Part shown: in pieces, positions 50,499 to 52,172 of the stretch | Layout: each line of letters starts with the position of its first letter | How positions within the stretch are numbered: the first letter of the stretch is position 1 | Notes under the pieces: model-generated | The model's database searches: none | What the model was told of the DNA's origin: nothing | The model's input: only the letters and a program-made list of their open reading frames with translations | Program-made: the position numbers and the translations under genes | NCBI RefSeq assembly: GCF_003334305.1 | Contig: NZ_QOWS01000005.1 | Direction: 5' to 3' (one strand) | From: Escherichia coli | Lineage (GTDB): Bacteria; Pseudomonadota; Gammaproteobacteria; Enterobacterales; Enterobacteriaceae | Length of the DNA: 64,000 nucleotides

Positions 50499-52172
50499 AT
50501 GAATATAAAGACGCTTAACGTCAGCCTTTTGTCTTTTTCTATTATTACAGCATTGTTTCCATTGAACGCGATGGCAACAAAATTAACCATAGAGCAGCGC
50601 CTTGAATTGCTTGAAAATGAATTGTCGCAAAATAAACAAGAGCTGAAAGCAACACAGAATGAACTGGGAGTATATAAATCCCGACTTTCGACCTTACAAA
50701 AAAGCATCACGGAAAACAAATATAAATCAGCCTCGCTTGCTGAAATATCAGCGACATCTCCCGTCGCTGATAACATCAAAAATGAAAACGGTGAACAGAA
50801 CTCGTTTACCGCAGCGCATACTATAAATGGATCGCAGCAAGTTGCCGTTATTGAAAGTAAAGGCGACAAAACCACTATCGAAAGCGTGACCCTGAAAGAT
50901 ATCAGTAAATATATAAAGGATGATATTGGGTTCAGCTATCAGGGGTACTTCCGCTCAGGCTGGGGTACTGGTAATCACGGCTCACCACAAACTTATGCAG
51001 CGGGTTCTCTGGGACGTTTTGGTAATGAGATGAGCGGTTGGTTTGACCTGACCTTAAATCAGCGTGTTTATAATCAGGACGGTAAAACGGCAAATGCGGT
51101 CGTTACCTATGATGGCAACGTGGGTGAGCAGTATAACGATGCCTGGTTTGGTGACAGTGCCAATGAAAATATCATGCAGTTCAGCGATATTTACCTGACA
51201 ACGCGAGGTTTTTTACCCTTCGCACCAGAGGCAGACTTCTGGGTCGGCAAACATAAACTCCCGCAATATGAGATCCAGATGCTGGACTGGAAAACCTTAA
51301 CCACGGATGTCGCCGCGGGTGTGGGGATTGAAAACTGGGCACTTGGTGTAGGGCTGTTTGATATGTCCTTAAGCCGTGATGATGTCGATGTTTACTCTCG
51401 TGATTTTTCGCGTACCAGCCAGATGAATACCAATTCTGTGGATGTTCGTTATCGCAATATCCCGTTATGGGATGATGCGACATTATCATTAATGGCTAAA
51501 TATTCCGCACCTAATAAAACGGATCAACAACAAGATAACGAAAATGACAACAGTTATTTTGAAATGAAAGATAGCTGGATGCTGACTTCTGTTTTACGGC
51601 AAAACCTGCAACGCGATACGTTTAATGAATTTACGTTACAGGTTGCCAATAATTCCTATGCCAGCAGTTTTGCCAGTTTCTCAGATGCCAGTAATACGAT
51701 GGCGCATGGTCGCTATTACTATGGTGATCATACCAATGGGATCGCCTGGCGTTTAATCTCTCAGGGCGAGATGTATCTTACTGACAATATTATTATGGCT
51801 AACGCGCTTGTCTATTCTCACGGCGAAGATGTTTATAGTTATGAAAGTGGTGCTCATAGTGATTTTGACAGTATTCGCACTGTAATAAGACCGGCCTGGA
51901 TCTGGAATACATGGAATCAGACGGGGCTTGAATTAGGCTGGTTTAAGCAACAGAACAAAACTCAGCAGGGTGTAACACTAAATGAATCGGCTTATAAAAC
52001 GACACTCTGGCATGCATTGAAAGTGGGTGAAAGCATTTTAGGTTCACGACCAGAAATTCGCTTCTATGGAACGTATATCAATATTCTGGATAACGAATTA
52101 TCGAATTTTAAGTTTAATGAGAACAGCAAAGACGAGTTTATGGCCGGCATCCAGGCGGAAGTCTGGTGGTAA
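50499..52172 (+). CDS. Carbohydrate-specific outer membrane porin (LamB/ScrY/BglH-like) with N-terminal coiled-coil
   Basis: 557 aa; signal peptide ending LNAMA; heptad-like [26 protein letters not shown]; aromatic-rich C-terminus ending EVWW. Confidence 0.7.

Follow-up and report, generated by a model that had tools for sequence, protein, structure and literature searches.

A ScrY/BglH-type sugar porin in an Escherichia coli PTS cassette is very probably the outer-membrane channel of the known bgc operon

Why does a PTS operon carry an outer-membrane channel of its own, and which sugar does that channel serve? The window, a 64,000-nucleotide stretch of E. coli DNA, raises this question with a gene that an earlier, sequence-only reading took for a dedicated sugar porin with a coiled-coil N-terminal extension. 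We are highly confident that its product is the outer-membrane porin, specific for sugars, that belongs to the bgc (beta-glucoside/cellobiose) operon of E. coli. Porin and operon alike are already known as a described accessory beta-glucoside cassette, and the porin itself holds nothing new. The sequence-only reading was correct in what it observed and in how it interpreted it, but it did not recognise the operon as one already described.

The gene encodes a secreted outer-membrane protein in which a long extension precedes a predicted beta-barrel. Gene and protein segments are as follows.

50499..52172, + strand: porin gene (BgcH-type carbohydrate porin, 557 aa; RefSeq WP_001022772.1, "carbohydrate porin")
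50499..50576, + strand: signal peptide, aa 1-26, read from the sequence and its conservation
50589..50708, + strand: heptad segment, a predicted coiled coil, aa 31-70 (Pfam, heptad count, AlphaFold2 helix 31-80)
50709..50936, + strand: low-confidence linker, aa 71-146 (pLDDT <50 for 77-142; conserved islets)
50937..52169, + strand: predicted 18-strand LamB-type beta-barrel, aa 147-557, with a C-terminal WW (Pfam, family profile, AlphaFold2, Foldseek)

Translation of the open reading frame at 50499-52172 (+) reproduces the 557 aa sequence as it was first quoted, with its C-terminal EVWW, comparable to EIWW in LamB. The signal peptide claimed on first reading is equally recognisable: the N-terminus runs from MNIK through a hydrophobic core to AMA followed by TK, with signal peptidase I cleavage predicted after A24-M25-A26, and both the Ala at -1 and a KLT after the cleavage site are invariant in 13 orthologues. 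Signal peptide and EVWW end together give the protein the features of a secreted outer-membrane protein. The C-terminal region had also been called aromatic-rich, and F, W and Y indeed make up 14.6% of its last 411 aa.

Sequence comparison places the porin in the LamB family and, within it, in the ScrY/BglH subgroup that bears a periplasmic N-terminal extension. Pfam PF02264 (LamB porin) matches aa 147-557 at E=2.2e-81 over the entire model (1-378 of 378), and PF11471 (Sugarporin_N, "maltoporin periplasmic N-terminal extension") matches aa 30-56 at E=3.9e-7. By BLASTP the porin is 53% identical to E. coli K-12 BglH along its whole length, the motif LT[VI]EQRLELLE included, and 25% identical to LamB (E=3e-24); pairwise alignment with the ScrY crystal chain gives 24% identity. 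We rejected maltoporin LamB proper as its identity. NCBIfam maltoporin models match the porin at 4.5e-60, below their curated cutoffs (NF006860, 204 bits versus a cutoff of 394; NF009061, 117 bits versus 765), which makes it a relative of that family.

The predicted structure agrees with this placement. An AlphaFold2 monomer model built on a 42-sequence family alignment (mean pLDDT 83.8, pTM 0.71) contains 18 long strands between aa 146 and 556, forming a barrel that is mostly at pLDDT >90. The barrel is preceded by a helix at aa 31-80, which holds pLDDT 85-90 to about residue 70, and a low-confidence stretch follows at aa 77-142 (pLDDT <50). In a Foldseek search of the PDB, the maltoporins of Salmonella and E. 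coli come first (E 4e-26 to 2e-24, target TM 0.76-0.78), followed by ScrY (E 4.5e-17, TM 0.80). An 18-strand LamB-type barrel behind a helical extension, as the sequence-only reading had expected of a ScrY- or BglH-type porin, is thus what fold prediction returns, and both the barrel and the tie to the LamB family are plain.

One search came back empty: single-sequence phmmer, run with the whole porin or the barrel alone against PDB sequences, gave no match at E<=10. Since BLASTP, Pfam, the family profile and Foldseek all link the porin to LamB or ScrY, we treat this result as a filter artefact and an oddity of the tool, not as absence of relationship. The family profile, built from the same 42 sequences, found ScrY 1a0s among PDB sequences at E=5e-45. 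LamB was one of those 42 sequences, so the profile's match to LamB is circular and only its match to ScrY is independent.

The N-terminal extension opens with a regular heptad repeat. From aa 31 to 70 a 3-4 pattern runs without a break, with one core position filled by L35, L42, L49, L56, L63 and I70 and the other by I31, L38, N45, T52, Y59 and L66. The a and d positions hold 10 of the 13 hydrophobic residues of aa 27-72, a concentration reached by just 5 of 20,000 composition-preserving shuffles, and the heptad-like stretch first noticed by eye therefore stands. In BgcH-type orthologues the run extends to residue 70, compared with about residue 51 in K-12 BglH. A parallel three-stranded coiled coil has been reported for the N-terminal region of ScrY. 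By analogy, the 40-residue heptad segment here should form such a coiled coil, reaching into the periplasm below the trimer.

Behind the heptads lies a linker that is variable in sequence apart from conserved islets. These lie at aa 86-98, 112-117 (QQVAVI) and 129-146 of the porin, and read SP[VA][AS][DE]NIxNEN[GS]E, QQ[VI]AV[IL] and SVTLKDISK[YF][IV]K[DE]DIGFSY across orthologues; the last is also found in BglH and in more distant relatives. Length is nearly fixed as well. Among the best 120 homologues, 110 are exactly 557 aa long and align without gaps at 76-99% identity. The extension is present in family members above roughly 35-40% identity and absent from LamB-like members.

What this long, length-invariant extension does in the ScrY/BglH/BgcH subgroup is not yet well understood. 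The invariant length and the islets conserved within an otherwise variable linker led us to consider that the N-terminal 120 mature residues might go beyond a passive "extended sugar slide" and be a periplasm-spanning tether of fixed reach, docking the trimer to peptidoglycan or to the cognate IIC. We regard this as a long shot. Were it true, sugar uptake at the outer and inner membranes would be coupled.

The channel lining is that of a LamB-family sugar channel with an altered constriction. We mapped the functional residues of LamB onto the porin through the family alignment. Four greasy-slide residues fall in the same columns (LamB Y6 = Y150, Y41 = W181, F227 = F375, W420 = W556), and pairwise alignment pairs W216, in the motif YNDAW, with the loop-2 tryptophan W151 of ScrY (YNDW), which corresponds to LamB W74. 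The sixth position, W358 in LamB and Phe435 in ScrY, is Leu514 here and a leucine in BglH too. Five of six slide positions are therefore aromatic, as befits the LamB family, and the comparison with LamB, ScrY and BglH that the sequence-only reading had called for finds the slide largely retained. In the polar track, the porin retains LamB R8, R33 and D116 (R152, R173 and D263) and has Asp183 for E43 and Glu258 for D111. The constriction residue Tyr118 of LamB, Asp201 in ScrY, is Lys265, and a lysine occupies this position in all 16 sampled members of the BglH/BgcH-like clade. Judged from these alignments, the constriction appears distinct from those of both solved structures, LamB and ScrY, as would be expected if the channel prefers another sugar.

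The porin is the fourth of five genes in an operon whose other members encode a PTS and a 6-phospho-beta-glucosidase, with a regulator gene divergent from it. The neighbouring genes and elements are listed below.

47459..48157, - strand: divergent GntR/UTRA regulator gene (BgcR-type), a pseudogene with TAA at 47900-47902 (codon 86)
48272..48287, + strand: CRP-like site TGTGAtcaatgTAcCA, in the intergenic region between the divergent regulator and IIB
48356..48667, + strand: PTS IIB (lactose/cellobiose family), first gene of the operon
48782..50104, + strand: PTS IIC (lactose/cellobiose family); RefSeq start ATG 48782, mechanical open reading frame from TTG 48743
50132..50443, + strand: PTS IIA (lactose/cellobiose family)
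50447..50474, + strand: stem-loop in the gap separating IIA from the porin gene (11 pairs, dG -20.2 kcal/mol, z = -4.3; weak U-rich tail)
52197..53636, + strand: GH1 6-phospho-beta-glucosidase (NF007154, 1034 bits versus a cutoff of 624)

The gene order is IIB, IIC, IIA, porin, 6-phospho-beta-glucosidase, all on the + strand and separated by short gaps: the porin gene begins 55 nt after IIA, and the GH1 gene follows 18-24 nt downstream. The placement inside a PTS operon, claimed from the start, is secure. The whole forms a cassette of 6.3 kb (about 47405-53692) between eamA and marB on the E. coli chromosome, with a G+C content of 0.38-0.46 against about 0.5 in the flanks. K-12 is without the cassette and has an eamA-marB spacer of 30 nt. 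The cassette replaces this spacer, and the last codons of eamA differ. Hairpin-like inverted repeats lie close to each cassette end, at 47430-47451 and 53662-53687.

Several smaller elements punctuate the operon. The stem-loop at 50447-50474 could be a partial terminator, or could act in mRNA processing or stability, and so set the ratio of PTS to porin expression. It is kept in Nissle, with a bulge, and in Citrobacter koseri (L005, about 6946-6973), where the top pairs CAG/CTG have become CAAT/ATTG. The CRP-like site is likewise conserved in C. koseri, as TGTGAccaatgTAaCA, while the neighbouring sequence diverges. Just before the IIB ribosome-binding site, at 48331-48344, lies a palindrome, CTGTTATATACCAG (12/14), which is not conserved in C. 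koseri. At 52170-52199 the porin and 6-phospho-beta-glucosidase genes share one frame, kept apart by a single TAA and eight sense codons. Porin-GH1 "fusion" gene calls occur in the protein database (P0002, P0003, P0005, P0020) and are presumably stop-loss variants or annotation artefacts.

Gene content identifies the operon as bgc. PMC3585215 describes bgc as a divergent GntR-type regulator and a five-gene operon with IIB, IIC, IIA and a phospho-beta-glucosidase, naming four of the five genes. The layout in the window is a divergent GntR-type regulator, IIB, IIC, IIA, porin and phospho-beta-glucosidase, and the identification follows from this match with the published operon. We take the porin to be the protein named BgcH, with its place in the bgc operon (BgcR; BgcE, F, I, H, A). 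Neelakanta, Sankar and Schnetz reportedly described the operon in 2009, counting the porin gene bgcH as the fifth. Their study is also said to have found that the bgc promoter depends on CRP, that the locus is prevalent in phylogroup B2 and that promoter-up mutations can free bgc from BgcR.

By analogy, the porin most likely works as a trimer whose channels bind their substrates and let cellobiose, arbutin and salicin diffuse in from dilute solution. By homology, the precursor would be exported by Sec and cleaved after Ala26, the 18-strand barrel would be inserted by BAM through the C-terminal aromatic signal EVWW, and the protein would assemble as a trimer. Each barrel would then provide a narrow channel lined by a greasy slide of Y150, W181, W216 (loop 2), F375, L514 and W556 and by a polar track of R152, R173, D183, E258 and D263. 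This lining may bind beta-glucosides such as cellobiose, arbutin and salicin weakly and saturably, and so speed their diffusion at low outside concentrations. The co-transcribed IIB, IIC and IIA of the lactose/cellobiose-family PTS would import and phosphorylate the sugar, and the GH1 6-phospho-beta-glucosidase would cleave the product.

Sugar scarcity is a more plausible reason than sugar size for a dedicated channel. The sequence-only reading had offered both, a substrate too large or too scarce for the general porins. Cellobiose, arbutin and salicin are all of about 342 Da or less, and general porins have a limit of roughly 600 Da. Because the reported bgc substrates are smaller than this limit, scarcity is the half of the proposal that applies and the size half fails for them. 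These three sugars are the bgc substrates reported in PMC3585215.

Could the natural substrate nevertheless be something larger, such as longer cello-oligosaccharides or plant or host glycosides above the general-porin limit? The lining is unlike that of LamB or ScrY (K265 replaces Tyr118/Asp201, and L514 replaces Trp358/Phe435); relatives built to the same plan belong to operons that encode other enzymes, as with P0130, which adjoins a GH106 enzyme; and bgc, one of four beta-glucoside operons in E. coli that PMC4488073 considers all cryptic, may have natural substrates other than its laboratory ones. We still consider a larger natural substrate rather unlikely, given a downstream enzyme that scores far over the 6-phospho-beta-glucosidase cutoff, a PTS of the cellobiose/lactose family and, as closest characterised paralogue, BglH, a porin for beta-glucosides (53% identity). 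A non-specific general porin like OmpF or OmpC would share the beta-barrel and the signal peptide, and 16-strand general porins do appear in the Foldseek list. They come only after a wide gap, at E of about 1e-7 and TM of about 0.55, compared with TM 0.76-0.80 for LamB and ScrY and E down to the 2e-24 range and beyond for LamB; the model has 18 strands, not 16, and Pfam assigns the protein to LamB, not to a general-porin family. With Foldseek favouring LamB and ScrY by so clear a gap, we rejected the general porin, which is barely credible.

A different doubt concerns whether the beta-glucoside channel is made at all in this strain. The TAA at codon 86 of the regulator gene is AAA in Nissle, and RefSeq lists the regulator as a pseudogene interrupted by an internal stop. 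Of 1776 matching complete E. coli genomes, only 11 contain the exact 61-mer spanning this codon, which is why we regard the stop as a rare, recent, lineage-specific knockout. Because BgcR is reported as a positive regulator (PMC3585215) and its gene here carries a nonsense codon, the operon, porin included, is probably silent or not inducible in the strain. From there it is a further step to call the porin a silent relic, not made since its activator was truncated and intact only because the lesion is recent, and on this we find the case evenly poised. The truncated activator and the rarity of the stop allele speak for it. On the other side, the porin reading frame is intact. About 50 substitutions in 1674 nt separate it from the Nissle allele (about 97% nucleotide identity), and they change 13 aa, a mostly synonymous pattern typical of purifying selection. 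Promoter-up mutations, moreover, can reportedly bypass BgcR, according to the 2009 study. Either way the matter bears on expression and leaves the identity of the protein as the bgc porin untouched.

The cassette is a common accessory locus with relatives across several genera. At 80% or more coverage it is present in 2494 of 5426 complete E. coli genomes (about 46%), essentially as a single copy. The same six genes stand in the same order in C. koseri, in another neighbourhood, and orthologues at 76-83% identity occur in Citrobacter, Salmonella (mainly subsp. salamae), Enterobacter and Kluyvera. Some distant relatives lie in settings other than a beta-glucoside operon. One with extension and barrel (45% identity; L008, 6001-7653) belongs to an operon of BglG antiterminator and glucose-family PTS, followed by a GH106 enzyme; another, also with extension and barrel (43% identity, 583 aa, with a longer heptad run; L007, 4258-6009), stands alone, with no sugar genes nearby. 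The porin has little significance beyond annotation; mildly useful are the count of genomes that carry the cassette and the rare activator knockout seen here.

Set against characterised systems, the porin moves from distant kin to near identity. LamB (PDB 1mal, 1af6, 1mpr), founder of the Pfam family, shares the 18-strand fold, the C-terminal WW, 25% identity and, column for column in the alignment, four of the six greasy-slide residues, but it is without the N-terminal extension, its Tyr118 and Trp358 are replaced in the porin, and it serves an ABC-transporter regulon whereas the porin lies in a PTS operon. ScrY (PDB 1a0s/1a0t) has in common an 18-strand barrel at TM 0.80, the YND(A)W loop-2 motif and a PTS sugar regulon. 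It differs in having D201 and F204 where the porin has K265 and T268, in its 24% identity and its different sugar, and in a pre-barrel region of about 70 residues compared with about 120 mature residues here. Deletion of the ScrY extension, itself about 70 aa long, alters sugar binding (Schulein et al. 1995, as cited in PMC4753733).

BglH, the cryptic carbohydrate-specific porin of the K-12 bgl operon, is nearer. It is described as a Bgl-specific porin (Andersen, Rak & Benz 1999, as cited in PMC2996990). At 53% identity it follows the same plan of signal peptide, LT[VI]EQRLELLE, linker, LKD[IF]SK[YF][IV]KD[DE]IGFSY and barrel, and it too has Lys where LamB has Tyr118 and Leu where LamB has Trp358. 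BglH is shorter (538 aa), its heptads span about aa 27-51 compared with 31-70 in the porin, and its gene is the last of an operon governed by a BglG antiterminator with a glucose-family PTS, whereas the operon here has a GntR-type regulator and a lactose/cellobiose-family PTS. The bgc operon of E. coli matches in species, in gene set and in its accessory status, being carried by B2 strains such as Nissle but not by K-12. By gene content we detected no difference from BgcH, which is most probably the same gene as the porin here. The one departure from bgc is that the regulator gene carries a nonsense codon where a functional BgcR would be encoded, a matter of the condition of the locus in this strain and not of its identity.
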